A program made the translations under genes and the position numbers. Under the pieces are notes generated by a model, which was given only the letters and a program-made list of their open reading frames with translations, ran no database searches and was not told where the DNA came from. Source: an uncultured Thermoleophilia bacterium (lineage in GTDB: Bacteria > Actinomycetota > Thermoleophilia > UBA2241). From it: a stretch of 64,000 bases of DNA. The stretch lies in NCBI GenBank assembly GCA_963798285.1, contig CAWCSR010000003.1, positions 66,777 to 130,776 of the forward strand, in the 5' to 3' direction. This document shows, one piece after another, positions 639-40,116 of this stretch; positions within the stretch are counted from its first letter, which is position 1; each line of letters opens with the position of its first letter.

Positions 639-1121
639 CTAGAGCGAGAAGATGTGCACCGGGCCAAGCTCCCGCATGGGACCGGGTTGAACGTCGCCGA
701 GACCATAGTCGTCGACGATGTGCGTCCTGGCGTCGAAGGTCAGGGTCATCCACGTGCCCTTCACATCGCCGCCCGTCGGGCTGAAGGACTTGGTGTTGAC
801 GAACTGGCCTTTGAGCACCACACCGTAGACGCGATCGCTATCGGGCACTCCGCCGCCCATCAGTACGCGGACCGCATCGCTGCGCCGGCAGGTCGTCCAC
901 GTGACAAGCTCGGGGTGAGGATCACCGCACGACGTAGCTTGCTGCCGTACCGCATCCAACAGCCAGGCTGGCGGCTGAATGGAGTCTGGCTGTGGAGACG
1001 GGGACGCGGCGGAGACGGCCTCGGCGGAGACAGGGCTGCCGCAGCCAGCCGCGGTGAGGAGAAGTGCGAGAACGGACAGTGCGAGCAACCCTGCGACGGT
1101 TGACTTCAGGAGACGTGGCAT
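639..1121 (-). CDS. Lipoprotein of unknown function (cassette ORF)
   Basis: 160 aa. Signal peptide with lipobox LLTAAGC. Located between attC B and C. Confidence 0.6.
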   Translation of the reverse strand: MPRLLKSTVAGLLALSVLALLLTAAGCGSPVSAEAVSAASPSPQPDSIQPPAWLLDAVRQQATSCGDPHPELVTWTTCRRSDAVRVLMGGGVPDSDRVYGVVLKGQFVNTKSFSPTGGDVKGTWMTLTFDARTHIVDDYGLGDVQPGPMRELGPVHIFSL

Positions 1122-1222
1122 CTCGAACCTCCCTACTGCGGTGTTTCGTGCCGTGAGACGATTAGCGGGCTACCGGTGTTCGCTCTTGACGTCGCGCTCA
1201 CGAAGCGGCCACGACCTGCTGC

Positions 1223-1324
1223 GCCCAACGTTTAGTGCATCAGCTGCAATACGCCGCGGCGATACGCTTCAACCCGAGACTAACGCTGGAGCGGCGTATT
1301 GTCTGCCGGATGCGCGTGTTGGGC
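1223..1324 (-). repeat. attC site C (divergent, ~102 bp, overlaps the 3' end of the GrpB ORF)
   Basis: GCCCAAC at 1223-1229 and GTTGGGC at 1318-1324. Internal inverted repeat CAATACGCCGC/GCGGCGTATTG. Confidence 0.5.
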
Positions 1325-1891
1325 CCTCGCCTCCCGCTTCGCGATCGCGGTCTCGCGAGTGATGAAGGCGGTCTTTGCGAGCGTGTAGGCCTCACGATCA
1401 TACGGGTACTGAGCGGCTAGAGCGTGCTTGAGGGCCGCGTACTCTCCCGCGACGTTCGGCTGGCTGCGCAAGCGATCACGGAACAGCACACGATTCCACT
1501 GCGGTTCGTCATCCAGGAGGGCCACGTGAACATGGGAGATGCGCCTTCCCAACTGATCACGGCCGATAAACCAGGGGTACCGTGGGCCGTCGTCTCCGAA
1601 CGCCGGGCGCAGGAAGTAGTCGTAGCCGGCGGCCTCCATCCTAGGGGCAACGTCGTCTTCGACGAAGCCGAACTCGTCGACGCCGAGAAGGATGTCGATG
1701 ATGAGCTTGGCCACTAGGCCGGGGACGGCGGTGCTCCCTACGTGTTCGATCCTGCGAATCGAGCCTGACGGGAAGAAGGCCTCGAGCCGAGCGACCTCCG
1801 ACTCGTAGAGCGAGGACCACGACGGGTCGCAGTCGACGAGCTCGATGCGTTCCGCGAGCACGCGAGCAAGCTTGTCCTCGAAGCTCTCCAC
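1280..1891 (-). CDS. GrpB family protein (cassette ORF)
   Basis: 203 aa. IEHVGSTAVPGLVAKLIIDILLGV and YPWFIGRD...HVHV segments are typical of GrpB/UPF0157. Confidence 0.8.
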   Translation of the reverse strand: MESFEDKLARVLAERIELVDCDPSWSSLYESEVARLEAFFPSGSIRRIEHVGSTAVPGLVAKLIIDILLGVDEFGFVEDDVAPRMEAAGYDYFLRPAFGDDGPRYPWFIGRDQLGRRISHVHVALLDDEPQWNRVLFRDRLRSQPNVAGEYAALKHALAAQYPYDREAYTLAKTAFITRETAIAKREARAQHAHPADNTPLQR

Positions 1892-1906
1892 ACGCCTCCG
1901 TCGATG

Positions 1907-1996
1907 GGCCTAACGCACCGCGGATACGCTGCGAGCGCGCCGGCTTCTGATGACAACGTCGGCGCTGCGGCGAGCCAGCTTGATCCGCTTGTTGGG
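1907..1996 (-). repeat. attC site D
   Basis: GCCTAACGCACCGCGGATACGCTGCGAGCGC...GGCGAGCCAGCTTGATCCGCTTGTTGGGC. Confidence 0.75.
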
Positions 1997-2004
1997 CGAC
2001 CCGC

Positions 2005-2307
2005 TCACGTCGGCAGGTCGAGCAATCGTTCGCTGCGCCAGACGCGGACGACACGGACCCGGTCCTCGGCGAGGCGATAGACGATCCGGAAGGGCGGATG
2101 GATGATCTCGCGCAGTTGCACGAGCCCAAACTCGGGCACCATGCGGCCGCTCACCGGGAAGTCAGCGAGCTGCTCGATGTGCGCGACGACCTCGCGCAGC
2201 AGGCGCTCCCCCACCTCGGGGGCCTGTTGGCCGGCGTACCAGGCGCGAATCGCCTCGAGGTCCGCGACGGCGGAGGCGGCGAAGCTGATGCGCGCTCGGG
2301 CGGGCAC
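2005..2307 (-). CDS. Type II toxin, RelE/ParE family (cassette ORF)
   Basis: 100 aa. ...FPVSGRMVPEFG...REIIHPPFRIVYRL..DRVRVVRVWRSERL is a ParE/RelE-like pattern. Lies 2 nt downstream of the antitoxin gene. Confidence 0.8.
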   Translation of the reverse strand: MPARARISFAASAVADLEAIRAWYAGQQAPEVGERLLREVVAHIEQLADFPVSGRMVPEFGLVQLREIIHPPFRIVYRLAEDRVRVVRVWRSERLLDLPT

Positions 2308-2309
2308 GC

Positions 2310-2597
2310 TTACTCGAGGCCGAGCCGCTGCTTGACGTCGGCGAGGTCGAGCTCGCGCCCCGCCTCAAGGTCGACGATGCCCTCGACGACGGCGCGCAGG
2401 AAGGAACGCTCCTCGGCCTCGGCCTCGTACTCAGTGAGGGCCTGTACGACGGCGACGCCGCGACCGCGGCTGGTGAGGAGTACCGGCCGGTGGGTCTCGT
2501 CGACCTGGCGCACGACCCGACCGGGGTTGGCCTTGAGGTCGCTGAGCGGCACGACGTCCTCCGAGAACTTGGGTGCGCTGCGCAAGGGAACCTCCAC
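2310..2597 (-). CDS. Type II antitoxin, Phd/YefM family (cassette ORF)
   Basis: 95 aa. VPLSDLKANPGRVVRQVDETHRPVLLTSRGRGVAVVQALTEYE is a Phd/YefM-like N-terminus. Confidence 0.8.
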   Translation of the reverse strand: MEVPLRSAPKFSEDVVPLSDLKANPGRVVRQVDETHRPVLLTSRGRGVAVVQALTEYEAEAEERSFLRAVVEGIVDLEAGRELDLADVKQRLGLE

Positions 2598-2687
2598 CTG
2601 AAGCCAGTGAATAGTACCGACTATAGCACCACTTCACAGGACCGCGAAGAGGACCCTCCGACCACGCCGCCGCTGGAACGAGGGTTC

Positions 2688-2774
2688 GCCCAACGCACCG
2701 CGGATAAGCTGCGAGCGCTGCGGCTCCGAGGTTGCCGCGACGTTCGGCGCGCCAGCTTGATCCGCTTGTTGGGT
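2688..2774 (-). repeat. attC site E
   Basis: GCCCAACGCACCGCGGATAAGCTGCGAGCGC...GCGCGCCAGCTTGATCCGCTTGTTGGGT. Confidence 0.75.
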
Positions 2775-26459: not shown

Positions 26460-27530
26460 ATGACGACCGACCTCGATCTGCTGCGCGACCTGTGCGCTGC
26501 TCCTGCCCCGACCGGGTTCGAAGCACCCGTTCAGGACCTCGTCCGGCAGCGCCTCTCCGCGCTCACGGAGCCGAAGGGTGACCCGCTGGGCAACGTCTGG
26601 GGTACCGTCGCGGGCAAGGGCGCTCCGGGCGTCGTGGTCACGGCCCACGCCGACCAGATCGGCCTCATCGTCACCTACGTGGACGAACACGGCTTCGTCT
26701 CGTTCGACAAGATCGGCGGCGTCGACCCCCAGCTGCTCCCCGGCCGCAACCTCGTCGTCCACGGCGCCAAGGGACTCGTGAACGGCGTCGTCGGCCGCAA
26801 GCCCTCGCACAAGATGAGCAAGGACGAGCGCTCCAAGGCGCCCGACCTCTCAGACCAGTGGCTCGACCTCGGCTGCTCCACACGCGACGAGGCGCTCGCC
26901 CTCGTGCAGATCGGCGACCCGATCACGTTCCCGCCGAACTTCCTGCCGCTCGCCGGCGGCCGCTACGCCTCGCCGGCGTTCGACAACCGCGCCGGCGTGT
27001 ACGTGTGCCTGCGCACGCTCGAGCACTACGCCGCGGCGCCGGCCGAGGCCGACCTCACGGCGCTGCTCACGGTGCACGAGGAGACGACGTTCATGGGCGC
27101 CAAAGCGATGGCCATCCGCTGGCAGCCGGACGTGATCATCGTCGTCGACGTGGACTTCGCCAGCGACGACCCCGGCCTGGACGCCAAGAAGCTCGGCGGC
27201 GAGGTCAAGCTCGGCGCCGGACCGGTGATCCACCGCGGCGCCGCCGGCAACCTCGCGCTCACCGACCTCGCCATCGCGGTCGCCAAAGACGAGGGCATCC
27301 CGGTGCAGGTCAAGGCGATGCCCGGCAACACGTCGACGGACGCCGAAGAGCTGATGGCCGCCGGCAACGCGGCGACGCTGTCGTTCAGCATCCCGGTGCG
27401 CAACATGCACTCGGCGTTCGAGGTCACGCAGCCGGACGACGCCGAGGCCGGGGCGCTCCTGGCGGCCGCGGTGACGCGACGCGTCGCCGAGGGTGGCTGG
27501 GACGCCGGCCGCTTCATCCCGCGCGTCTGA
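26460..27530 (+). CDS. M42 family metallopeptidase (FrvX/CelM-like aminopeptidase)
   Basis: 356 aa. APTGFE...VVVTAHADQIGLIV...FDNRAGV...VHEETTFMGA...DVDFA. Confidence 0.8.
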   Translation: MTTDLDLLRDLCAAPAPTGFEAPVQDLVRQRLSALTEPKGDPLGNVWGTVAGKGAPGVVVTAHADQIGLIVTYVDEHGFVSFDKIGGVDPQLLPGRNLVVHGAKGLVNGVVGRKPSHKMSKDERSKAPDLSDQWLDLGCSTRDEALALVQIGDPITFPPNFLPLAGGRYASPAFDNRAGVYVCLRTLEHYAAAPAEADLTALLTVHEETTFMGAKAMAIRWQPDVIIVVDVDFASDDPGLDAKKLGGEVKLGAGPVIHRGAAGNLALTDLAIAVAKDEGIPVQVKAMPGNTSTDAEELMAAGNAATLSFSIPVRNMHSAFEVTQPDDAEAGALLAAAVTRRVAEGGWDAGRFIPRV

Positions 27531-27581
27531 GCGCGGGACCGGGCGGCTGTCAGCGCCCGGGGGAGGCGGCGCCGCCGCCGC

Positions 27582-28690
27582 TCAGCGCAGCGCGGCGGCA
27601 GTCCGTTCGGCCGCCGCCGCGACCGGCTCGGCCGGCGGCGCGCCCAGCGTGGACGCCAGCTCGCGCGCCATGACCGGCTGCCACTTGAGGCGGCCCGGCG
27701 CGAGCAGGTGGAACAGGTCGGCGAAGTCGCCGTCCGTGAGCTTCACGGCGTGCTCGACGTCGATGTAGGGCACGCCGTAGCGCGCGGCGAGCGCGCGCGC
27801 ACGCTTGTGGTAGGCCGGCACCACGCCGTTCCAGGTCGGGCCGGCCGCCGAGGCATTGAGCGGCTGGTCGTACAGCACGACGCTGTAGCCGCGCTCCTGC
27901 GCCAGCTTGAGGACGTCCTCGCAGCATGGCGAAGTTGTAGTCCGCGTTCTGGCGATACAGCTTCGCGTCCGTGGCGAGCACGGTGAGGACGTTGCGCCGT
28001 TTGCCGAGGGGAGAAGCCCCGGTCGCGCCCCACGGGTAGTAGTGCGGCGCGTACTTGATCCGCGCGCCCCAGAGCGCCGTCCCGACTCCGATCCCGCGCT
28101 CGTGCAGGTACGAGCCCAGGTAGTCGAAGATGCCGGGGATGGCGCCTGCGGCATTGGCCGTCTTGCCGAAGTACTTCGGTCCGACCTGGTCCAGCCGCGG
28201 GCTGCGCACCAGGAGCGTGTGACCGGCGAGCAGGGACGCGTCCCGCGATGGTGCGCCGTCGAGGCGGATCGGCGCCAGCCCGATGGCGATCGTGGCCGGC
28301 CCCGGCGGCAGGTTGTCGACGAGCGCCAGCGTCATGGCCATGCTCTCCTGGTGGGCGGCGAGGCTCACGACCTGCACCGGCTGCTTCGCATCGTGGCCGA
28401 TCTGCCCTGCGAGCGAGGCCTCGCTGACGATGCACTCCATGGTGCCGGAGCCACCGAAGAGATATACGGTGCGCGTGGCCGGCGGGTGCTCCTTGAGCTG
28501 CTGCACCTTGACGGAGACGTGCAGGTAGTCGTCGTGCGGGATGCGCAGGAGGCGGCCTTCGTCGACCGCGGTCAGGCCGCCGTCGAACAGGATGCCCTGC
28601 AAGACGAAGAGCGCGACCAGCGTGACGAGGGCGGCCGCGACCAGCACCAGCGGGTTGCGCTGACGAAAACCGCGGCCGAACGCCAGCCAT
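27582..28690 (-). pseudogene. DltD-like (SGNH-like) extracytoplasmic acyl-transferase/esterase, paralog 3; two frame breaks as assembled (~28684 and ~27926)
   Basis: ATG at 28690, then a +1 shift gives (M)AAFGRGFRQRNPLVLVAAALV (TM). LFGGSGTME. C-terminal DGDFADLFHLLAPGRLKW in the frame of ORF 27582-28154. Collinear with 30034-31110 and 31110-32177. Confidence 0.7.
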
Positions 28691-28789
28691 GAGTCGGTGC
28701 TCTGTCCGTCACGGAGTGCCAATCTGTACCTCACAGGCTCCTTGGTGCTGATGGTCTCACAGGATGAACGCTCAGGGCCAGCAGGTGGT

Positions 28790-30037
28790 TCACAGGATGG
28801 CGCCATGGATCCACGCCAGCGGCAGACGCACCACGTTGAAGATGATCTTCAGAGCCTGCTGGATGTTCCCTGTTGAGACGAACGCATAGCCGAGCGCCAC
28901 GAAGAGGAACGTCGCCGGGTAGCCCAGCCACTTGGTGACCTTCTCGTAGCCGGCAGCCGGCGGCAGGCCCGCCTTCTTGCGCTTCTTCTTGCGGGCCCGC
29001 TTCCACCGCTCCCAGCGCGCCACGACGACGAGACCGGTGCCGTGGTAGAGGCCCCAGGCGATCCAGTTCAGGTCGACCTGGTGCCACAGGCCCATGACCA
29101 GCATACTCGAGTACAGGCCCAGCCACGTCTTGCGCGTGAGGCCGAACGTCGGGAAGTACACGTTGTTGCGCACCCAGGTGCTGAGCGAGATGTGCCAGCT
29201 GTGCCAGAACTCGCTCAGGTTCTTCTGCCAGAACGGGAAGTGGAAGTTCTCCATGATCCGGAACCCGAAGAGGCGCGAGAAGCCGACGGCGAGGTCGGTG
29301 TACGCGGAGAGGTCGAAGTACGCGCGCACGAACACGATGATGCAGTACGCGAGCGGCCACCACCAGCCGACGTGGTGCGGGTTGAAGTCGGTCTTGCCGA
29401 TGGTCGTGATGATCTTGCCGAAGAAGATCGAGAACAGGAAGTCGACGACGAAGACCTTCTTGAAGTAGCCCAGCGCGATGCGCCGCAGGCCGTAGTAGAA
29501 CTCCTGGCGCTCGAAGCCCACGGTGCGCTTCTCGTAGAAGCCCTGGTACGTCTCCAGCGGACCCGCCGGGAACGCCGGGATCCACATGATGAACGCCGCC
29601 AGCCGCAGCAGGTTGTTCTCCTCGATCACGCCGCGCATGCAGTCGAAGATGTACTGCAGCATGCGGAACACGAAGTAGCTGATGCCCAGCGGCATGATCA
29701 GGTGGCTGACGATGGGGTCGTTGGAGCCCCAGATGGCGCTGGCCCCCGTGTGCCCGTACTTGCCGATGCCCAGCGTCACGAGTGCTATGACGATGCCGAT
29801 GAGCACCACCCGGCCGCCGCGCAGCTTCTTCTTGCGCTTCAGATCGACCAGCTGGTGCGTGACCAGCACAAGCCCGAGGGCGATGCCGGCGAAGATCGGG
29901 TTCAGGAGGGCCAGTACGGCGACGCTGACGACGAGCATGAAGATCAGCCGGTAGACGTCCTTGCGCAGCAGCAGCCAGAAGACGAGCAGCGCGACGATCA
30001 CCACCGGGATCAGGTACAGCGTGAAGTAGATCTTCAC
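28790..30037 (-). CDS. MBOAT family membrane O-acyltransferase (DltB/AlgI-like)
   Basis: 415 aa, polytopic. PLGISYFVFRMLQYIFD and NLSEFWHSWHISLSTWVRNNVYFP (conserved His). GTGA overlap with the upstream gene. Confidence 0.85.
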   Translation of the reverse strand: MKIYFTLYLIPVVIVALLVFWLLLRKDVYRLIFMLVVSVAVLALLNPIFAGIALGLVLVTHQLVDLKRKKKLRGGRVVLIGIVIALVTLGIGKYGHTGASAIWGSNDPIVSHLIMPLGISYFVFRMLQYIFDCMRGVIEENNLLRLAAFIMWIPAFPAGPLETYQGFYEKRTVGFERQEFYYGLRRIALGYFKKVFVVDFLFSIFFGKIITTIGKTDFNPHHVGWWWPLAYCIIVFVRAYFDLSAYTDLAVGFSRLFGFRIMENFHFPFWQKNLSEFWHSWHISLSTWVRNNVYFPTFGLTRKTWLGLYSSMLVMGLWHQVDLNWIAWGLYHGTGLVVVARWERWKRARKKKRKKAGLPPAAGYEKVTKWLGYPATFLFVALGYAFVSTGNIQQALKIIFNVVRLPLAWIHGAIL

Positions 30038-31110
30038 CCGCTACTCCCTCCAGAGTCCGTGCTGAGGAGCGGGGCGAGCTCCTTCGCCAGTGCATGTTGC
30101 CAGATGACGCGCCCGGGCGCGATGAGATGCGAGAGGTCCTGGAAGTCGCGGCTCGGGATGTCGAGCGTCTTGTTGAGGTCGACGTACCGGACTCCGTACT
30201 TGCCGGCCAGCGCCGTCACCGGCTCCTGGTATTGCCGCTGCGAGGCGGCGAAGCTGTCGCCGACGATCTGCTCGTTGAGCGGCAGCTCAACGAGCACGAC
30301 GCGCACGTGGCGCTCGCGGGCCTGCTTCAACAGCTCCTCGAGCATCTGCAGGTTGGCGGCCACGTTCTGGTCGAAGACGGGGCGGCGGCTCGTGTTCCAC
30401 GTCGTCACGAGCCGCCTCTTCTGGCTGTTCGAGCGCCGCGTCGCCGCCGAGTACCGGTGGAGGGCGTACTCGATGCTCGGCGGCTTTCCCTCGACCAGGC
30501 CGACCGCGTGCGTCTTGGCCCACCCGGTGATGTACGACCAGATGCCGGGCAGGATGGTGTACTGATACTTCCCGAGTCCCCAGTGGGACGAGACGAAGGA
30601 CTGCACGGCGCGGCTGTCCAGCAGCAGCTCGCGGCCCTGGGCCTGCACGGCGTTCGTCTGCCTGGTCTCCGTGAAGCGGCCCAGGTTGATGCCGACCAGC
30701 ATCCAGGCCGGCGTGCGCGACGTGTCCGGCACGCTGTCCACAACGGCCAGGCTCTCGGCGAAGTTCTGATTGATCGAGCCCAGGTCGTAGGCGGCGACGC
30801 TGGGGCCGCCGTCCTGCTTGATCTCGGCGGCGAGCGCGTCGCCGCTCACGATCGACTCGCGGGCGCTCGAGCCGCCGACCAGGTAGAGGCCCGGCAAGCT
30901 CGGCGGCTGCTGCCGCGCCCTGCCGACCATCCACGAGATGTACGTGAACGAGTCCTGGCGATTGCGCAGGGCGCGGTCGAGCGACACCGTCGTCCAGGCG
31001 CCGCTCGTGAACAGCCACTGGAAGCCGAGCAGCGCCGGTACGAGCAGCAAGCCGGCGACGATCAGCACGAGCGGATTGCGGTTGCGGAACCCGCGCTTGA
31101 AGGCGCCCAT
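30034..31110 (-). CDS. DltD-like extracytoplasmic acyl-transferase/esterase, paralog 2
   Basis: 358 aa. N-terminal TM (NPLVLIVAGLLLVPALLGF). LVGGSSARE (compare DltD GSSE). SRDFQDLSHLIAPGRVIW (compare DltD D-x-x-H-I-x-x-x-G). Confidence 0.7.
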   Translation of the reverse strand: MGAFKRGFRNRNPLVLIVAGLLLVPALLGFQWLFTSGAWTTVSLDRALRNRQDSFTYISWMVGRARQQPPSLPGLYLVGGSSARESIVSGDALAAEIKQDGGPSVAAYDLGSINQNFAESLAVVDSVPDTSRTPAWMLVGINLGRFTETRQTNAVQAQGRELLLDSRAVQSFVSSHWGLGKYQYTILPGIWSYITGWAKTHAVGLVEGKPPSIEYALHRYSAATRRSNSQKRRLVTTWNTSRRPVFDQNVAANLQMLEELLKQARERHVRVVLVELPLNEQIVGDSFAASQRQYQEPVTALAGKYGVRYVDLNKTLDIPSRDFQDLSHLIAPGRVIWQHALAKELAPLLSTDSGGSSG

Positions 31111-32177
31111 CAGCGCGTCGTCCTGAGCGTGCCGTCCTTGTAGAGCGCGGCCAGCCGGCGGGCGAGCTCGGCCTGCCAGATCGCCCGCCCCGCGGGCCGC
31201 AGGTGCGACAGATCGAGGAAGTCACGGCTGGGGAGGTCGAGCTGGGCGTTGAAGTCGAGGTACGGCACGCCGAACTTGTCGGCGATGGCCTTGGTGGGCG
31301 CCTGGTAGGCTGCGATCGCCTTGGCGAAGGCGTCGCCGACGATCTGCCGGTTCCACGGGAGCTCGACGATGACGATGTCGAGGCCGCGCGCCTTACCCTC
31401 GGCGATCAGGCCGTCGAGCATCGCCGCGTCGAACGCGTGGACCTTCTTGAACGCGGGGTAGTACTGCGTGAGCCACTGCTTCACCAGCGCGCGCTTCTCG
31501 GAGTCCGGCAGAGTCTTGCGCGTGTCGAACGCGTGCACCTTGTACGGCTTCTGGTGCAGCTTGCCCTTGAGGAGCGCGTTCTCGCGTTGCTGCACGTAGG
31601 AGGTGAGCGCCGAGAAGATGCCCGGCAGGATCGTGTACGAGTACTTCTGCTCGCCCGAGTGCGCGGTGACCCAGCGGCGCAGCGAGTCGCTCTTGAGCAG
31701 GAGCTCGCGGCCGATGACCTGGTTGTAGTTGCTCTGCGGGCTGGTCGTGAAGCGGCCGAGGTTCACGCCGACCAGCACCGTCGTCGGCGTGTCCGGCAGG
31801 TTGTCGAGGATCGCCCAGCTCTGCGCGTAGCGCTGCATGCGCGAGCTCAGGTTGTACGCGGCGATGCCGGGGCCGCCGTCCGCCTTGACCTCGGCGGCCA
31901 GAGAGGGACCGCTCACCAGCGCCTCGCGTCCGCTCGAACCGCCGAGCAGTACCGCCAGCGGCTGATCGGGCGGGTGCTCCTTGAGGTGCCCGACCGTCCA
32001 CGAGACGAACATGTAGTCATCGGTCGAGTTGCGCTCCCAGCGCTGTGCGGCGATCGCCGTCCAGGCGCCGCTGGTGAAATAGCTCTGAATGGCGAGAAGC
32101 GCCGGCACGAGGAGGGCCAGCGCCGCGACGAGCACCAGGGGGTTCCGGTTGCGCAGGCCCCTCCTGAAGCTGCTCAC
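31110..32177 (-). CDS. DltD-like extracytoplasmic acyl-transferase/esterase, paralog 1
   Basis: GTG at 32177 overlapping the ligase stop (GTGA). VSSFRRGLRNRNPLVLVAALALLV, LLGGSSGRE, SRDFLDLSHLRPAGRAIW. Confidence 0.7.
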   Translation of the reverse strand: MSSFRRGLRNRNPLVLVAALALLVPALLAIQSYFTSGAWTAIAAQRWERNSTDDYMFVSWTVGHLKEHPPDQPLAVLLGGSSGREALVSGPSLAAEVKADGGPGIAAYNLSSRMQRYAQSWAILDNLPDTPTTVLVGVNLGRFTTSPQSNYNQVIGRELLLKSDSLRRWVTAHSGEQKYSYTILPGIFSALTSYVQQRENALLKGKLHQKPYKVHAFDTRKTLPDSEKRALVKQWLTQYYPAFKKVHAFDAAMLDGLIAEGKARGLDIVIVELPWNRQIVGDAFAKAIAAYQAPTKAIADKFGVPYLDFNAQLDLPSRDFLDLSHLRPAGRAIWQAELARRLAALYKDGTLRTTR

Positions 32178-33709
32178 CCCAGCTCCTCGACGAGCAGAGC
32201 CTGCAGCTCCGCCCTGATCGCCTTTCCGGATCCGGTGCGCGGGATCGCCTCGACGGCGATGACGCGGCTGGGCAGGGACGTGGACGGCAGCACGCCGCGC
32301 AGCTCGCGCAGGAGCTTTGAGGCTCTGAAGCCGTCCGGCTCGTGCGGGACGACGAACGCGACCGGCACGTGGCCGAGGATCTCGTCCGGAGCGGCGACCA
32401 CGGCGACGTCGGCGAAGCGTCCGAGCCCCTGCAGCGCCTCCTGCACGTGGATGATGCTGACCTTCTCGCCGCCGCGCTTGATGATGTCGTCCTTGCGCCC
32501 GGCGATCCACACGGCGCCCGTCTCGTCGACTTTGCCGAAGTCACCGGTCTTGAGGCCGTGATCCGTCAGCGTCTTCGCGGTGATGCCCGGCTCGTCCAGG
32601 TAGTCCTGCATGAGCAGCGAGCCGGTCACGTAGAGCTCGCCCTGCTCGCCGGGCGCGGCCTCCGTGAGGTCGCCGCGCCGGGCGACCACGCGCATGTCTC
32701 CGATGGGCCGGCCGACTGAGCCGACGCGCACGTCGAGCTCGGCCGGCGGCAGGATGCACAGCCGGCCGCTGACCTCGGTGAGGCCGTACATGTTGAACAG
32801 GCCGATGCCCGGCAGCACGCTTTGGAACTTCTCGATCACCGGCAGCGGCAGGTGGTCGCCGCTGCTCACCCAGAAGCGCAACGGGTGCTCGCGCGGCTCC
32901 TCCATCGGCTCCACCACGCGGACCAGATGGGCCGGCGCGCCACCGAATCCGGTGCAACCCTCCGCCTCCATCTCGTCGAGCAGGCCGGTGCCGAAGTAGA
33001 AGCCGAGCTGGCCGGCCACGCCCCCGCCGCTCGCCAGCAGCGTGAGGAAGTGGCAGATGCCGCTGGTGAAGTACGGCGGCGTGTTGATGAAGATGCGGTC
33101 GCCGGCCTCGAGCCCGAGCGTGAGGGCGACGTGCCCGGCGTTGCTCGAGACCGCCCTCAGCGTCTGGCGCACACCCTTGGGCAGCCCGGTCGTGCCGGAC
33201 GTGAACATGATCATCGCGATCTCGTCCCCGGTGACGGCCTTGAGCTCGCCGGGGGCAGCGGCCGCAGCAGCTTCGCCGCCGGCCGCGCGCACGCCGTCCA
33301 CGAGGCCGTCTGCGTCGGCGGTGACGACGAGCCGCACGGGACCGTCGTCCGGCGTCGGGCAGGTCGCGTCGTCCGGTACCAGAATGACGTCCGGCCGGGA
33401 CTTGCCGACCAGCCAGTCCACGTCGTGCTGCGGCAGGCTCGTGTTGAGCGGGACGACGACCTGCCCGGCGAGCCAGGCGCCCAGCATGCAGACGAAGAAC
33501 TGGTCGTACTCCTCAAGCACGAGCGCGATGCGGGCGCCGCGCCGGCCAGCGGCGGCCAGGAGTGACGCCGCGACTCGCGTCGCCCGCGCCTCCATGTCCG
33601 CGTAGGTGTAGGTGCGCCCGCGCGTGCGCAGAAGCGTCTCGCCGGCGCGCTCGGCCGCGAAGCGGCGCAGGCGCGCGACGGCGTCGGTCATCAGTGGCTC
33701 GGGCGTCAT
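32174..33709 (-). CDS. ANL-superfamily adenylating enzyme (AMP-dependent synthetase/ligase; DltA-like role, substrate unknown)
   Basis: 511 aa. MFTSGTTGLPKGV, NMYGLTE, KTGDFG, GRKDDIIKRGGEKV, PRTGSGKAIR core motifs. Confidence 0.85.
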   Translation of the reverse strand: MTPEPLMTDAVARLRRFAAERAGETLLRTRGRTYTYADMEARATRVAASLLAAAGRRGARIALVLEEYDQFFVCMLGAWLAGQVVVPLNTSLPQHDVDWLVGKSRPDVILVPDDATCPTPDDGPVRLVVTADADGLVDGVRAAGGEAAAAAAPGELKAVTGDEIAMIMFTSGTTGLPKGVRQTLRAVSSNAGHVALTLGLEAGDRIFINTPPYFTSGICHFLTLLASGGGVAGQLGFYFGTGLLDEMEAEGCTGFGGAPAHLVRVVEPMEEPREHPLRFWVSSGDHLPLPVIEKFQSVLPGIGLFNMYGLTEVSGRLCILPPAELDVRVGSVGRPIGDMRVVARRGDLTEAAPGEQGELYVTGSLLMQDYLDEPGITAKTLTDHGLKTGDFGKVDETGAVWIAGRKDDIIKRGGEKVSIIHVQEALQGLGRFADVAVVAAPDEILGHVPVAFVVPHEPDGFRASKLLRELRGVLPSTSLPSRVIAVEAIPRTGSGKAIRAELQALLVEELG

Positions 33710-33725
33710 GAGCGCGTAGCTGGGG

Positions 33726-33923
33726 TCAGAAGCCGACGTATCTGAACTCGGTGAGCTTGTCGCCCACCAGCACGGCCACCGTGATCGCCAGGAACAGCAG
33801 GAACCAGAGAAACGTCTGCAGGCTCAGACCGAGCCCGTAGTAGAACCACTGGGCGCGAGGCTTGGCCGGCTCCGGGCTCTCCGTGCCCTCCGCCGGCCGC
33901 TGCTCTGTATCAGTCTCAGGCAT
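33726..33923 (-). CDS. DltX-like small membrane protein with C-terminal F-x-Y-x-x-F motif
   Basis: 65 aa. One TM (LQTFLWFLLFLAITVAVLV). Extreme C-terminus EFRYVGF. 8-nt overlap with the carrier-protein gene. Confidence 0.6.
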   Translation of the reverse strand: MPETDTEQRPAEGTESPEPAKPRAQWFYYGLGLSLQTFLWFLLFLAITVAVLVGDKLTEFRYVGF

Positions 33924-34164
33924 CGCCCGCCTTCTTGCGCGCGACGTAGGCCAGCATGTGGTTCACGGTGTCCAGGTTCTCGTAGACGATGTCCATGGGC
34001 CTCACCTTGATCTCGAACTCCTCCTCGAGAAACGCGATGAGCGCCGTGAGGTTCATGGAATCGAGCAACTGGTCACGGAAGAGCGACGTGTCGGCGGTGA
34101 CCTCGTCTTCTTCAAGGTCGGCCTCGTCGCGGATGAATTCGAGGATGGTATCGGCGTCGGCCAT
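33916..34164 (-). CDS. Acyl/peptidyl carrier protein, DltC-like
   Basis: 82 aa. SLFRDQLLDSMNLTALIAFLEEEFEI with Ser in the LDS phosphopantetheine site. GGAAGGA RBS. Confidence 0.8.
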   Translation of the reverse strand: MADADTILEFIRDEADLEEDEVTADTSLFRDQLLDSMNLTALIAFLEEEFEIKVRPMDIVYENLDTVNHMLAYVARKKAGDA

Positions 34165-34192
34165 GTCGGTTCCTTCCCGGTCTGGGCGAGGG

Positions 34193-34876
34193 TCAGGTAC
34201 GGGTGCCCTGGCTGTAGGAGAACTGCATGTAGTTCTCGAAGCCGGAGGCCTCTTTGCCCGCCTTGATCACCCCGGCGAGCGTGAACACGCGCTGCGCGGT
34301 CTGGAAGCCCTGCTCGAGGCCCCACTCGTCGCTGAGGACGTGCCCCCTACCTCCGGCCCAGCCGTAGGCGCCGAACTGACAGGAGCCGTCGCCGTTGCCC
34401 ACGACGAGGCAGCCGTTGCGCACGAAGGGCAGCCACGTGGCCAGGATCGCCGTCTCGGCGCCGCCGGAGCGGCGGCCGGCCGTGGCCAGCACGCCGACCG
34501 GCTTGTCGGCGAGCCTGAAGTCCTGGTGCCGCAGCGGGCGCGTGCGCATGATGAACCTGGAGAACAGGTCGGACGGCAGACCGAAGTAGACCGGCGTGGC
34601 CACGAGGATGCCGTCGGCGGCCACCATCGCGTCGAGGATGCCCTGCACGTCGTCCTCCTGCTCGCGGACGCAGGGGATGAAGGTGCCGTCCTTCTTCTTG
34701 CCGCAGACGTTGCACGCCTTGCACGGCTCGATGTGCAGGTCACGCAGGCTGATGACCTCGTGCTCGCAATCGCCGGGGTAGGCGGCGTCGAGCTTCTCGA
34801 AGGCCGTATCCAGCATGATGCTGCTGTTGCTGTTGTCGCGGGGGCTGCAGTTGAGCCCCAAGAGCCGCACCGTCAT
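34193..34876 (-). CDS. Flavodoxin-like/NADPH-dependent FMN reductase family protein with a Cys cluster (iron-sulfur flavoprotein-like)
   Basis: 227 aa from ATG 34876. LLGLNCSPR, CKACNVCGKKKDGTFIPC, ILVATPVYFG. Confidence 0.6.
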   Translation of the reverse strand: MTVRLLGLNCSPRDNSNSSIMLDTAFEKLDAAYPGDCEHEVISLRDLHIEPCKACNVCGKKKDGTFIPCVREQEDDVQGILDAMVAADGILVATPVYFGLPSDLFSRFIMRTRPLRHQDFRLADKPVGVLATAGRRSGGAETAILATWLPFVRNGCLVVGNGDGSCQFGAYGWAGGRGHVLSDEWGLEQGFQTAQRVFTLAGVIKAGKEASGFENYMQFSYSQGTRT

Positions 34877-35040
34877 GCTTCGTGCTCCTCTCCGTGCACG
34901 GCCCCCCGACGAACACGAAGGGCAGAAGGGAAACGTCATGCCCGCAGTCGCCGTACGGGAACGCAATCGTACCAGACGTCCGGCTCGCGCGCGCCCGCAA
35001 CACGCCCGCGCAAGGCGATACACAGGCGTTTCACAGGAAG

Positions 35041-35128
35041 TGGTGCCGGAGGTGGGACTCGAACCCACACGCCCTTTCGGGGCACCCGATTTTGAGTCGA
35101 GCGCGTCTACCAGTTCCGCCACACCGGC
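35041..35128 (-). tRNA. tRNA-Leu (anticodon CAA), long variable arm, CCA encoded
   Basis: Minus strand reads GCCGGTGTGGCGGAACTGGTAGACGCGCTCGACTCAAAATCGGGTGCCCCGAAAGGGCGTGTGGGTTCGAGTCCCACCTCCGGCACCA. Confidence 0.9.
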
Positions 35129-35364
35129 ACGGTGTCGTCCGCAGGAGAGCCATCCCTTGACCACTCGCAGCCGCGCGGCGCCATTGGAACAGACTGCCGA
35201 CCTTGTCCGGCTTTCGCCATCGCGGGTGCTGCGTGCCTATTCTGACGTATCCCGACCACCTTGTGCATCTTCGGAGTCTGGATGATCGTTCAGCCGGGTT
35301 GTGACGGCCGGCTCAGGGTCGAGGCTGGTGTGCACCATCAGGCAGACACGCGCGACTCAGGAAG

Positions 35365-35646
35365 TCACTCAGTCTGGCCGGCAGCCACAAGCTCCGGGGC
35401 GTCGGCGACGGGCTGCTCCGGGGCGCCAGCGACGGGCTGCTCCTGGGCTTCAGCGACGGGCTGGCCAGCGGTCGCGGCCGTCGACTGCTCTTCGTCCTCG
35501 AGAGGGTCGTCCTCGTCGAGGCCCTGCTTGAAGCCGCGGATGCTCTGGCCGAGTGAGCGACTGAGCTTGGGCAGCCGCTGCGCCCCGAAGAGAAGGAAGA
35601 CGACGAGGGCGATGATGAGCAGTTCAGGTACGCCGATATCAGGCAC
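35365..35646 (-). CDS. tatA: Twin-arginine translocase subunit TatA/E
   Basis: [42 protein letters not shown]. Acidic C-terminal tail with EQPVA repeats. Confidence 0.8.
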
Positions 35647-35885: not shown

Positions 35886-36584
35886 TCAGTACTGCGAAGA
35901 GTATGTCGTGGTCCACATGGACGGACCCATGCCCTTGCTGAGGGCGTAGGCGGTCGCGAAGATCTGCGAGCTACCGTCGTAGATGCTGTCGCCGCGCCAC
36001 GGGTTCCAGCTCGAGGACCAGGTGCCCGTGTAGTACTGGAACAGCCCCTTGAAGGAGGTGCTGGACCCGGCGTACTGCTGGCCACCGGACTCGCGCATCA
36101 TCATGCGGTACATGCCGTCGGCCTTGACGTGGTACTTGGCCGCGGCGACCTTGATGATCGGCATCCACTGCTGGTCGGCCTCCCAGCGGGCCATCTGAAG
36201 CTCGAAGCGGTACTGCTTCGCGATGCGCTGCACGCGCTGCGTCCAGACGTGGACCGCGTGCCGCGCCCGGCTCACCTGCGCCTTGAGCTGGTCGACCGTG
36301 AGGCCGGCCGGGGTGGCGGCAGGAGATGGCGTGGCGGCCGGGGTGGCCGTGGCGACCGGACCGGCGGAGGTGGCGACGCTGGTCGTGGAGCCGATCACAG
36401 CGGCGGACAGGGCGGCCTCGGCGGCCTTCAGGCGGTGGGTGGAGTGGCGGAGGGCCTGCTTCGCTGAGCGGAGCTGGTCCTTGAGGGAGGCCGCCTCGGC
36501 CTTCTGAGGCACGGCGATGGCGGCCAGGGCGGTGGCGACGACGATGATCGCGACGATGGCGATCCAGCTCTTCCTTCGACTCAC
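35886..36584 (-). CDS. Secreted/membrane-anchored lytic transglycosylase (SLT-like domain) with coiled-coil linker
   Basis: GTG at 36584 after AAGGA. TM WIAIVAIIVVATALAAIAV. C-terminal MRESGG...FKGLFQYYTGTW. Confidence 0.6.
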   Translation of the reverse strand: MSRRKSWIAIVAIIVVATALAAIAVPQKAEAASLKDQLRSAKQALRHSTHRLKAAEAALSAAVIGSTTSVATSAGPVATATPAATPSPAATPAGLTVDQLKAQVSRARHAVHVWTQRVQRIAKQYRFELQMARWEADQQWMPIIKVAAAKYHVKADGMYRMMMRESGGQQYAGSSTSFKGLFQYYTGTWSSSWNPWRGDSIYDGSSQIFATAYALSKGMGPSMWTTTYSSQY

Positions 36585-36764
36585 AACGTCCTTTCGACGC
36601 GGTTTCCCCTCGGGCAGCGGTATCTGACCTGTGCAGAAGGGGGCGGTCGGCGTCGGAACCACGCTGAGCCCGCATGCGCACGCCGCAAGGGTGAAGGGGG
36701 AAGAAGGAGGGCGAACAGAATGTGGGGGCGCGCCAGACGCCTCGTTGTTCGTTCGGGGAGTTAG

Positions 36765-37916: not shown

Positions 37917-37981
37917 GCGACACGCCTCCACCTCGCAAGCGCCACCCGTGGCGCGCGGCGATCGTCTTCCTGGTCATCGTC

Positions 37982-38923
37982 GTGGCGCTGTTCCTCATCG
38001 TGCCGCGACTGGCCGGCCAGAAGCACGCGCTCGAGCTGCTGCAGGACGCCACGCCCGCCTGGCTGGCGGTGGCGGTCGCGGTCGAGTGCGTCTCGCTCTT
38101 CTTCTACTCGCTGCTCTTCCGCCGCCTGCTCGACCTCCTCCGTACCCTCTGTCGCTCGGCCTGGCGCTGCGCATCAACCTCGCCGGGCTCGCGGCCGCCC
38201 ATCTCTTCTCCGCCGGCGGCGTGGGCGGCGCGGCCGTGACCTACCGCGTGCTGCAGAAGCGCGGCATGCCCCACTCCCTCGTCCTGATCGCGGTGATCTT
38301 CCAGAACGCGTTCGCGTACATCGTGCTCTTTGCGCTCTTCGGCGCCGGCCTCACGGTGCTCATCCTGCGCGGGCAGGGCGGCGACGCGGCGGAGGTCGTC
38401 GCCGGCATCTTCGTCCTCCTGCTGCTCGGCGGCCGCCGGCTACGGCTTCTGGCTGCTCAGCCATCCCACGTCGCTGCGCCGGCGCGCGCACAAGGTCGTG
38501 GGCTGGCTCGAACGCCGGATCAAGCGCCTGGACGTGGACCCTTCCCAGCTGAACGAGTGGCTGGACGGAGTCGTGGACGGCTGGCGGCGCCTGCGCCGCG
38601 TAGGCTGGAGGCACGTAAGGACGCTGGGGCTCGCCGGCGGCTACTGGGCCTTCGACATCGGCTGCCTGCTCCTGGTCATGCTCGCGTTCCACCAGACGCT
38701 CTCGCCCGACAGGGTGCTGATCGCCTACGCCGTCGCCAACGTGGTCGGCACCTTCTCCCCCACGCCCGGCGGCCTCGGCGCCGTGGAGGGCGTCATGATC
38801 GCGCTGCTCGTGGGCTTCGACATGCCGTCGGCGGCGGCTGTCGCGGTGGTCCTCGTGTACCGCCTGATCAACTTCTGGCTGCCGATCCCCGCGGGGCTTG
38901 CCACCTACCTCAGCGTTCGCTAG
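37982..38923 (+). pseudogene. UPF0104/LPG-synthase-TM (flippase-like) membrane protein; two frame breaks; start uncertain (may extend to ~37913)
   Basis: Three collinear pieces in the frames of ORFs 37982, 37627 and 38330. Ends ...VANVVGTFSPTPGGLGAVEGVMIALLV...VLVYRLINFWLPIPAG. Confidence 0.65.
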
Positions 38924-39007
38924 CTTGCCCGTTCCATCCCCGGGGCCCCGCACCCCGCCTGCGCTCAGTCCTGCCACGCACGGCCTCGCGCACCCTGTGG
39001 TACTGTC

Positions 39008-40116
39008 GTGACCTTGGCGGAAGGGCCTGCCGACCCTGGGGGGAACGCCATCAAGAAGACGCTCCGCCACATCATCGTCTTCGCGGTCATCGTGCTGGCG
39101 CTCTACCTGCTGCTGCCCAAGCTCGTCGACACGCAGGAGACCGTCAAGTACGTCTCGCAGGCCAGCTACGTGCTGCTCGCGCTCGCCGTCGCCCTCGAGA
39201 TCGTGGCGCTGGCCGGGTACGCCAACCTCTTCCGCTACATCCTGCGCGTGCTCGACATCCGCCTGCGCCTGCGCGAGGTCTGGGCGATCACGCTGAGCGG
39301 CCTGGCCGTGAGCCACATCCTCTCGGCCGGCGGCGTCGGCGGCTGGGTCGTGACCTACAACGCGCTCATGAAGCACAAGGTGCCGCACGGCATCATCTTC
39401 GTCGCCATCGCGGCCCAGCAGTTCTTCAACTACGTGGTGCTCTGGTTCTTCTTCGCGATCGCGATGGTCTACCTGATCCTCGTGCGCGGCGGCGACTCGA
39501 TCTTCGGCTACCTGGCGGGCATCGTGCTCATCGTGCTCATCCTGTGGCTGACGCTCTACGGCGTGTACCTCTACAACCACCCCACGCGGCTGCGCCTGCG
39601 GGCGGCGCAGGTCGGCCCGTCTGGTGAACCGCGTGACGCGCCGCGAGGTGGTCAAGGAGCGCCACATCGACGGCTGGATCGACAACCTGCTGATCGGCAT
39701 GCGGCGCATGACCGGCCACCGCGGGGTCGTTCCGGAACACCCTTCTGTCCGCCTGCGTCTTCTGGTCCTTCGACGTGCTCTGCCTGTGGTGCACGTTCGC
39801 AGCGTTCGGCTACACGATCGGGCTCGGCCACCTGCTCGTGGGCTACGTGGTGGCGTACTCCATCGGGACGCTGGCGCCGACGCCGGGAGGGCTGGGCGCC
39901 ATCGAGGGCATCATGATCGCGCTCTACGTGAGCTTCGGCGTGCCGTCCGCCGTCGCCGTCGCCGTCGTGCTCGTCTACCGCATCATCAACTTCTGGCTGC
40001 CGATCCCGCCCGGCTTCATCGCCTACGCGGTCGTGCGGCCGGGCCGCCGCCCGATCGCCGAAGGCGAGGTGGAGGCGGCGGCCGACGAGGCCCCCGAAGA
40101 GCTCCTGAGCCGGTGA
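39008..40116 (+). pseudogene. UPF0104/LPG-synthase-TM (flippase-like) membrane protein, paralog; two frame breaks (~39615, ~39740)
   Basis: Pieces in the frames of ORFs 39008, 39624 and 39775. ...SIGTLAPTPGGLGAIEGIMIALYV...VLVYRIINFWLPIPPG. Confidence 0.65.

Follow-up and report, generated by a model that had tools for sequence, protein, structure and literature searches.

The closest described counterpart of the gene analysed here is DltX of the Bacillota (PF12459/DUF3687; NCBI name "teichoic acid D-Ala incorporation-associated protein DltX"). It is described as a single-pass microprotein, in which the invariant Tyr of a C-terminal FXYXXF motif receives D-alanine (D-Ala) that DltB has taken from DltC and carries it to a serine of DltD (PMC12148441, citing Schultz et al. 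2023). The tail reads FLYFGF in S. thermophilus DltX (PMC11035591) and FIYNEF in the proteins of L. plantarum (PMC13653941) and B. thuringiensis (PMC5541007); we found that Listeria DltX also ends in FIYNEF. MBOATs using acetyl-CoA bear the same hexapeptide at their own C-terminus (PMC12148441), and a DltX-like microprotein is stated to be missing from MBOAT pathways other than Dlt (PMC12148441). The acyl-Tyr shuttle is itself a recent finding, dating from 2023 for DltX and from 2025 for PatA. A precedent for Dlt-type pathways outside the Bacillota is provided by the dlt operons of Gram-negative bacteria (Dickeya, Pectobacterium), whose small DltX has the same topology and no sequence similarity to Firmicute DltX (PMC5541007).

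Here we analyse a 64,000-nucleotide (nt) stretch of DNA, hereafter "the window", from an uncultured Thermoleophilia bacterium (assembly GCA_963798285.1, contig CAWCSR010000003.1, positions 66,777 to 130,776 of the forward strand), which encodes a microprotein ending in FRYVGF between the genes of a carrier protein and an adenylase. By analogy with DltX, we consider it likely that this translated, single-pass protein is a detachable subunit that shuttles acyl groups within a Dlt-like, carrier-dependent machine for envelope acylation. A DltX-type shuttle had been proposed in an initial annotation made from the sequence alone, which described DltX as a single-pass protein with a conserved C-terminal motif bearing the D-alanyl group on its Tyr, between DltB and DltD; PMC12148441 describes it in the same way. 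In the searchable literature we found nothing relevant on "FRYVGF" or on Dlt-like systems in Actinobacteria.

The microprotein gene and its conservation

The gene of the DltX-like acyl-shuttle candidate, which we assign to an "FRYVGF family", occupies positions 33726..33923 of the minus strand and has an ATG start codon and a product of 65 amino acids (aa), MPETDTEQRPAEGTESPEPAKPRAQWFYYGLGLSLQTFLWFLLFLAITVAVLVGDKLTEFRYVGF. Its terminal hexapeptide F60-R61-Y62-V63-G64-F65 (codons at 33729..33746, minus strand) matches FXYXXF (PMC12148441), and Tyr62 (codon 33738..33740) is the proposed acyl-accepting residue. Hydropathy and alignment columns place a single transmembrane helix with the invariant residues Q36 and W40 at residues ~26-53 (33765..33848, minus strand); this is the only hydrophobic segment, with 19-residue Kyte-Doolittle windows exceeding 1.6 at starts 29-42 and reaching a peak of 2.43. 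Translation and hydropathy thereby confirm the initial reading of one transmembrane helix followed by an FRYVGF tail in a 65-aa protein. The N-terminal ~25 residues had been described as acidic, Pro-rich and longer than in Firmicute DltX, and indeed residues 1-25 contain six acidic residues and five prolines, compared with an N-terminus of 11 residues in B. thuringiensis DltX (PMC5541007). The open reading frame (ORF) coordinates also agree with the arrangement noted at the outset: the microprotein ATG falls within the final codons of the carrier gene, the overlap being exactly 8 nt (ATGCCTGA), and the adenylase ORF (32174..33709, minus strand) follows the microprotein stop after a gap of 16 nt. 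A Shine-Dalgarno-like GAAGG can be read 6 nt 5' of the ATG. Since the microprotein is the sole one among 783 stop-to-stop ORFs (at least 40 aa, six frames, whole window, G+C 70%) to end in F.Y..F, against 0.0008 expected from composition, occurrence of the motif by chance is excluded.

A word-index search revealed at least 347 homologues at the level of 90%-identity clusters. The ending TEFRYVGF is present in all 120 homologues among the matches listed, in which the N-terminal region varies freely in both sequence and length, as well as in all 82 microprotein copies of the loci that we fetched. Because the word-index search and the genome scan share words of the motif, we added two tests that are independent of it. 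First, a search with a hidden Markov model (HMM) against 1.84 billion representative proteins (E<=1e-3) returned 54 matches at the 50% identity level, every intact one of which ends in F[RH]YV[GR][FY], the Tyr never varying; the four that deviate are evidently gene calls with a frameshift. Second, we retrieved 80 metagenome loci with the MBOAT only, and in all of the 32 that span both the carrier gene and the adenylase start the small ORF with the motif is present. The shuttle proposal had been made conditional on homologues keeping the C-terminal Tyr motif and on otherwise identical clusters keeping the ORF; we found the Tyr and the hexapeptide in every intact homologue, the HMM matches included, and no MBOAT-retrieved locus spanning the region without the ORF.

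Across 47 diverse members, F60, Y62 and V63 are invariant, as are the helix residues Q36 and W40, while R61, G64 and F65 show a conservation of at least 90%, with F or Y always in the terminal position. Among 76 distinct nucleotide sequences, the last nine codons differ only synonymously, and Arg61 alone is encoded by six different codons across the loci. Within the last 38 codons the third position is variable in 37 and the second position in 17, with a mean dN/dS of ~0.25. Of 107 distinct junctions with the carrier gene, 86 retain the 8-nt overlap. As judged from these comparisons, the ORF is translated and subject to purifying selection. Public records name the members of the family "hypothetical protein", and no Pfam family covers the group consistently.

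Partner genes of the microprotein

The microprotein was found in 79 species-level GTDB genomes, where, on every contig that extends far enough, genes for the carrier, the adenylase, SGNH proteins and the MBOAT accompany it. The typical order is a gene for an FMN-reductase-fold protein (first in most loci from Thermoleophilia), then carrier, microprotein and adenylase, and then SGNH genes flanking a short MBOAT. Low-GC distant members of the family, 46-50 aa in length, adjoin a PP-binding carrier gene, and one of them lies directly upstream of an MBOAT, in a differently ordered locus where genes for a carrier and an adenylase are close by. Because distant members keep their partners in different orders, the association between the microprotein and the pathway genes is a functional one and more than inherited synteny.

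The MBOAT of the window (28790..30037, minus strand; 415 aa, Pfam MBOAT) is clearly DltB-like. It matches the TIGR04091 LTA_dltB model over its full length with 164 bits, under the equivalog cut-off of 375, and its sole sequence matches in the PDB are to DltB (S. thermophilus DltB, E 1e-31), with WHISLS aligned to WHMSLS and GLWH to GFWH; the identity to Listeria DltB is 27%. The two histidines of these blocks, H282 and H319, are invariant in our MBOAT alignment and correspond to His289 and His336 of S. thermophilus DltB (PMC11035591). A C-terminal FxYxxF was found in none of 44 MBOAT orthologues, and the protein of the window ends in ...AWIHGAIL. We also noticed a basic loop at residues ~340-370, RWKRARKKKRKKAGLPP...KVTKWLG, which is strikingly similar to RKKKTINKDRKKAGLKP...KWTKALG of DltB despite the low overall identity, and which may be a carrier-docking element or another element specific to DltB. 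The carrier (33916..34164, minus strand; 82 aa, Pfam PP-binding E 8e-10), with its phosphopantetheine Ser36 predicted in LLDSM, would take the role of DltC: it is 39% identical to Listeria DltC over 56 aa, LLDSM included, and scores 32.8 bits with the NCBIfam DltC model NF003464, below the cut-off.

Three SGNH paralogues are encoded in the window, each with an N-terminal anchor, a GGS block and a DxxH block, and SGNH and DltD profiles match their sequences weakly. Paralogue A (31110..32177, minus strand; ~355 aa) has an N-terminal transmembrane anchor, GGSS and DLSH blocks and a weak match to Lipase_GDSL_2; it shares 48% identity with paralogue B, along with the invariant alignment columns for Ser, Asp and His. 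Paralogue B (30034..31110, minus strand; 358 aa), the candidate for the DltD role, has the proposed catalytic residues Ser81, Asp325 and His328. In a Foldseek comparison of its AlphaFold2 model (predicted local distance difference test score 85.9) with the PDB, the best matches are the DltD structures 6o93, 6pfx, 3bma and 7dxm (E 2e-5 to 2e-4), which come from Enterococcus, S. pneumoniae and others; other GDSL/SGNH enzymes rank next. According to this model, paralogue B has a DltD-like fold; a phmmer search against the PDB sequences found nothing, and the relation to DltD is visible by fold only. Paralogue C (27582..28734, minus strand; ~383 aa, GGSG and DLFH blocks) is split into two frames by a 1-nt insertion near 27921 (ATGCTG-C-GAGGAC). 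It is intact in L001, an ENA metagenome contig to which the window is 98.8% identical, and in which it is the adenylase that is broken, by three 1-nt insertions (window equivalents 33249, 32587, 32519). The indels in both genes look like long-read assembly errors, not like marks of pseudogenes. The total number of SGNH genes per locus ranges from 1 to 5, which suggests that there are several acceptors, or several positions, per shuttle. In all three paralogues of the window the transmembrane anchor is preceded by a juxtamembrane motif, F-x-R-G-[FL]-R-x-R-N-P-L-V-L, with F4, G7, R11, P13 and L16 invariant, which may be a docking element for the complex of MBOAT and microprotein.

The adenylase that would take the role of DltA is a FadD-like member of the ANL family (511 aa, Pfam AMP-binding E 9e-61 and AMP-binding_C). 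The first gene of the operon (34193..34876, minus strand) encodes a 227-aa protein of the FMN-reductase fold (Pfam FMN_red E 2e-22), similar to iron-sulfur (Fe-S) flavoproteins; the motif CxxCxxCx9-10C is found in all 98 full-length copies. Canonical dlt operons have no counterpart of this gene, and at least one distant low-GC locus (P0181) lacks it. An additional enzyme occurs in the relative P0140, whose tail is FHYVGY: here a gene for a B12-binding radical-SAM protein lies between the carrier and microprotein genes (L086, and L087 5341..12103). Because this locus belongs to a surface-polysaccharide cluster with Wzy_C, Acyl_transf_3, glycosyltransferases, UDP-glucose dehydrogenase and asparagine synthase, it hints at a polysaccharide as the acceptor.

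Comparison with known shuttles and alternative explanations

Like DltX, the FRYVGF protein is a microprotein with one transmembrane helix and a short tail, predicted here to lie on the extracytoplasmic side, with F-x-Y-x-x-F at the very C-terminus and an invariant Tyr. The spacing between helix and Tyr is similar (~9 residues, compared with ~12 in DltX), and both proteins are encoded in operons with an adenylase, a carrier, a tail-less DltB-type MBOAT and one or more DltD-like SGNH proteins. The differences concern the tail, which is fixed as EFRYVGF and not FIYNEF or FLYFGF; the invariant transmembrane residues, which are Gln and Trp in place of the conserved Leu of DltX; and the N-terminus, which is longer, acidic, Pro/Ala-rich and variable in length (~5 to 80 aa across the members). 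Moreover, the microprotein gene comes after the carrier gene and overlaps it, whereas the DltX gene precedes dltA, and the host belongs to the Thermoleophilia (Actinomycetota). The fused-shuttle MBOATs (PatA, AlgI, WssH, PatA1) follow the same hexapeptide logic, and the acyl-Tyr chemistry proposed for them is likewise directed at an SGNH protein (PMC12148441). In these enzymes the motif is carried on two extra transmembrane helices of the MBOAT, the donor is acetyl-CoA and there is no carrier protein, whereas in the window the motif resides on a separate gene product and the donor would be a carrier loaded by its own adenylase. Both architectures coexist in one genome region, since contig L167 has a long fused-type MBOAT (1014..2711, plus strand; a 565-codon open frame) ending in ...SPFLYFQF beside a split FRYVGF system. 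The Gram-negative dlt operons, as described, have a DltA-type D-alanine ligase and a single DltD, unlike this cluster with its FadD-like adenylase, Fe-S flavoprotein and three SGNH paralogues.

Because the locus has every element of the split version of an MBOAT/SGNH system, a shuttle operating through acyl-Tyr62, from the funnel of the MBOAT to the active sites of the SGNH proteins, is the most likely function of the microprotein. The same mechanism had at first been deduced from the motif and its terminal position, and the presence of a tail-less DltB-like MBOAT, a DltC-like carrier and an SGNH protein with the predicted DltD fold lends support to it. In the scheme that we propose, the FadD-like adenylase would activate a carboxylic acid, probably not an alpha-amino acid, and load it as a thioester on the phosphopantetheine of carrier Ser36. 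By analogy with DltB and DltX, the microprotein helix would pack against the MBOAT, and the MBOAT (His319, His282) would pass the acyl group through its tunnel to the Tyr62 hydroxyl of the extracytoplasmic FRYVGF tail. The acyl-Tyr tail might then swing into the active site of one of the three membrane-anchored SGNH transferases (Ser81/Asp325/His328 in paralogue B), which would form an acyl-Ser intermediate and esterify a polymer of the cell envelope.

Several observations weigh against this interpretation. Neither Pfam PF12459 nor the NCBIfam models match the microprotein of the window at E<=1; of the 47 family members, one reaches E 0.08 with PF12459, i.e. the level of chance transmembrane matches; and BLASTP against Listeria DltX gives no match. 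A comparison by hhalign with an alignment of DltX from the B. cereus group yields a probability of 0.7%, the alignment being shallow (effective number of sequences, Neff, 1.6), as a word-index search with B. thuringiensis DltX returned 12 sequences, all from that group. A phmmer search with the microprotein against the PDB sequences found no DltX chain and no meaningful match. Since no match to the DltX families of Pfam and NCBIfam is detectable, we class the microprotein as a DltX analogue from the unannotated FRYVGF family: the initial label "DltX-type" holds for the motif, the architecture and the predicted function, membership in the sequence family is not detectable, and the protein may or may not share its ancestry with DltX or with the terminal helix of the fused MBOATs. 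The orientation that the scheme demands, with the N-terminus in and the C-terminus out, is predicted as probable, and yet the positive-inside signal for it is only modest: the flanks of the helix contain on average 1.77 versus 1.19 Lys and Arg residues, the N side having more of them in 23 of the 47 members, fewer in 5 and an equal number in 19, so that support for the orientation is weak. The adenylase departs from the Dlt model as well. Among solved structures its closest matches are FadD13, FadD5 and MenE (E 5e-45 to 1e-41, the former value for FadD13), DltA follows only at 6e-26, and DltA models are not among its best 25 NCBIfam matches; it is 24% identical to Listeria DltA, and its PYFTSG aligns with FSFDLS of DltA, placing a Thr opposite the Asp. 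As is established for ANL enzymes, this Asp binds the alpha-amino group of the substrate in DltA and in the adenylation (A) domains of nonribosomal peptide synthetases (NRPS). The chemistry on Tyr62 may accordingly differ from that on DltX, as the adenylase is not DltA-like. Finally, all carriers of the cluster are metagenome-assembled genomes (MAGs) or metagenome contigs.

The properties of the adenylase also bear on the alternative that we deal with first, namely that the locus encodes an ordinary Dlt pathway, in which the microprotein would be no more than a strongly diverged orthologue of DltX, transferring D-alanine to a teichoic-acid-like polymer of a Gram-positive actinobacterium. Each of the five Dlt roles is filled, homology to DltB and DltC is clear, the Thermoleophilia belong to the Actinomycetota, and the distant member P0185 lies in the order adenylase, microprotein, 391 aa, 86 aa, which recalls dltA-(X)-B-C; in addition, Gram-negative dlt operons are a reported case of DltX proteins that have diverged beyond sequence similarity (PMC5541007). 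We nevertheless regard this explanation as unlikely. Because the adenylase is FadD-like, scoring far better with FadD13, FadD5 and MenE than with DltA, and because it has Thr at the position of the amino-binding Asp of DltA and NRPS A domains, its substrate is probably not an alpha-amino acid and the acyl group is probably not D-Ala; the D-alanine:carrier ligase of DltA type that defines the Dlt pathway is not what we find in the window. A conserved Fe-S flavoprotein gene at the head of the operon, the radical-SAM insertion and polysaccharide-gene surroundings of the related locus P0140, and a number of SGNH genes between 1 and 5 are further points against an ordinary Dlt pathway.

A non-catalytic role of the microprotein, e.g. 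as a structural or assembly subunit that clamps the MBOAT to the SGNH anchors and uses its tail as a docking peptide, appears improbable. The invariant Q36 and W40 do suggest a specific packing of the helix, and the tail of DltX also binds DltD and DltE non-covalently (PMC13653941), but the residue that never varies is the very Tyr that bears the acyl group in the published motif, and its distance from the C-terminus is the same (PMC12148441), the MBOAT has no tail of its own to perform the transfer, and the Tyr acts as the covalent carrier in DltX and PatA, the two systems tested to date (PMC12148441). The view that the ORF is a spurious or untranslated overlap of two real genes, prompted by its small size, by annotations that never go beyond "hypothetical protein" and by frameshift errors elsewhere in the contig assemblies, is for practical purposes already refuted by the comparative data, i.e. 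by the hundreds of homologues that conserve frame and C-terminus despite widely varying N-terminal length, the purely synonymous variation of the last nine codons and the low dN/dS, the Shine-Dalgarno-like element with the conserved coupling overlap, and the retention of the motif by distant members in other gene orders.

Returning to the acyl-Tyr62 shuttle, its mechanism is not categorically new, because it is of the type described for DltX and PatA. The novelty lies in the sequence family, which is distinct and unannotated, in the lineage, in the different adenylase and the additional components, and probably also in the acyl group and the acceptor. The family, separate from DltX, is widespread in an uncultured class of the Actinomycetota, present also in other lineages, and coupled to a carrier and a non-DltA adenylase. 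More tentatively, we speculate that the FRYVGF microproteins could constitute a second family of detachable acyl-Tyr shuttles, which in the Thermoleophilia would deliver a non-amino-acid acyl group, activated by the FadD-like adenylase and possibly tailored by the Fe-S flavoprotein or, in some relatives, by the B12-radical-SAM enzyme, to several envelope acceptors, with one Tyr shuttle working for up to five SGNH paralogues. If this is true, the split, carrier-fed MBOAT/SGNH design is not confined to the D-alanylation of teichoic acids; the locus predicts a so far uncharacterized envelope modification in the Thermoleophilia and may offer a natural system in which one shuttle serves several SGNH transferases. 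A small transmembrane ORF ending in F-x-Y-x-x-[FY] beside a short MBOAT may serve as a signature for split shuttles that are missed by profile libraries. Annotation pipelines leave what would be an essential shuttle component as a "hypothetical protein".

Host range and genomic neighbourhood

Nearly all of the 79 species-level genomes are MAGs that carry the label Thermoleophilia or Actinomycetota; there is no isolate among them. Contigs with the cluster were also binned in MAGs labelled Krumholzibacteriia and Gemmatimonadaceae (L003 and L021, GCA_014859985.1; L034). Because the same microprotein sequence and gene order are found on a contig of a Thermoleophilia MAG (L002, identical to L020), contamination during binning is suggested, and these single labels are probably artefacts. 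For the same reason, and since nearly all cluster genomes are Thermoleophilia, we rejected the "Krumholzibacteria" label of one NCBI homologue, the contig sequence of which recurs in a Thermoleophilia MAG, as an indication of taxon. Some Thermoleophilia genomes have two or three copies of the whole cluster (L024, L025 and L042 in one MAG; L005 and L009 in another), each with its own microprotein and with a different SGNH complement, and in L053 two clusters are arranged in tandem on one 6.9-kb contig.

A scan for promoters and terminators over 27000-35400 gave nothing informative. Directly upstream of the operon lies a gene for tRNA-Leu(CAA) (35041..35128, minus strand), the only Rfam match; a 323-aa ORF (34193..35164), in which the flavoprotein gene is extended across this tRNA gene, is an artefact. 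The neighbourhood (window ~37980..40116, plus strand, and beyond; L001 2048..5944) is rich in genes for envelope modification. It comprises two LPG_synthase_TM (MprF-flippase-like) genes at ~37980..40116 (plus strand), apparently split across frames in the window; further neighbours are a PMT_2 (ArnT-like) glycosyltransferase, a methyltransferase and TatA (35365..35646, minus strand), and an ORF at 35886..36662 (minus strand) reads by eye as a secreted transglycosylase-like protein.

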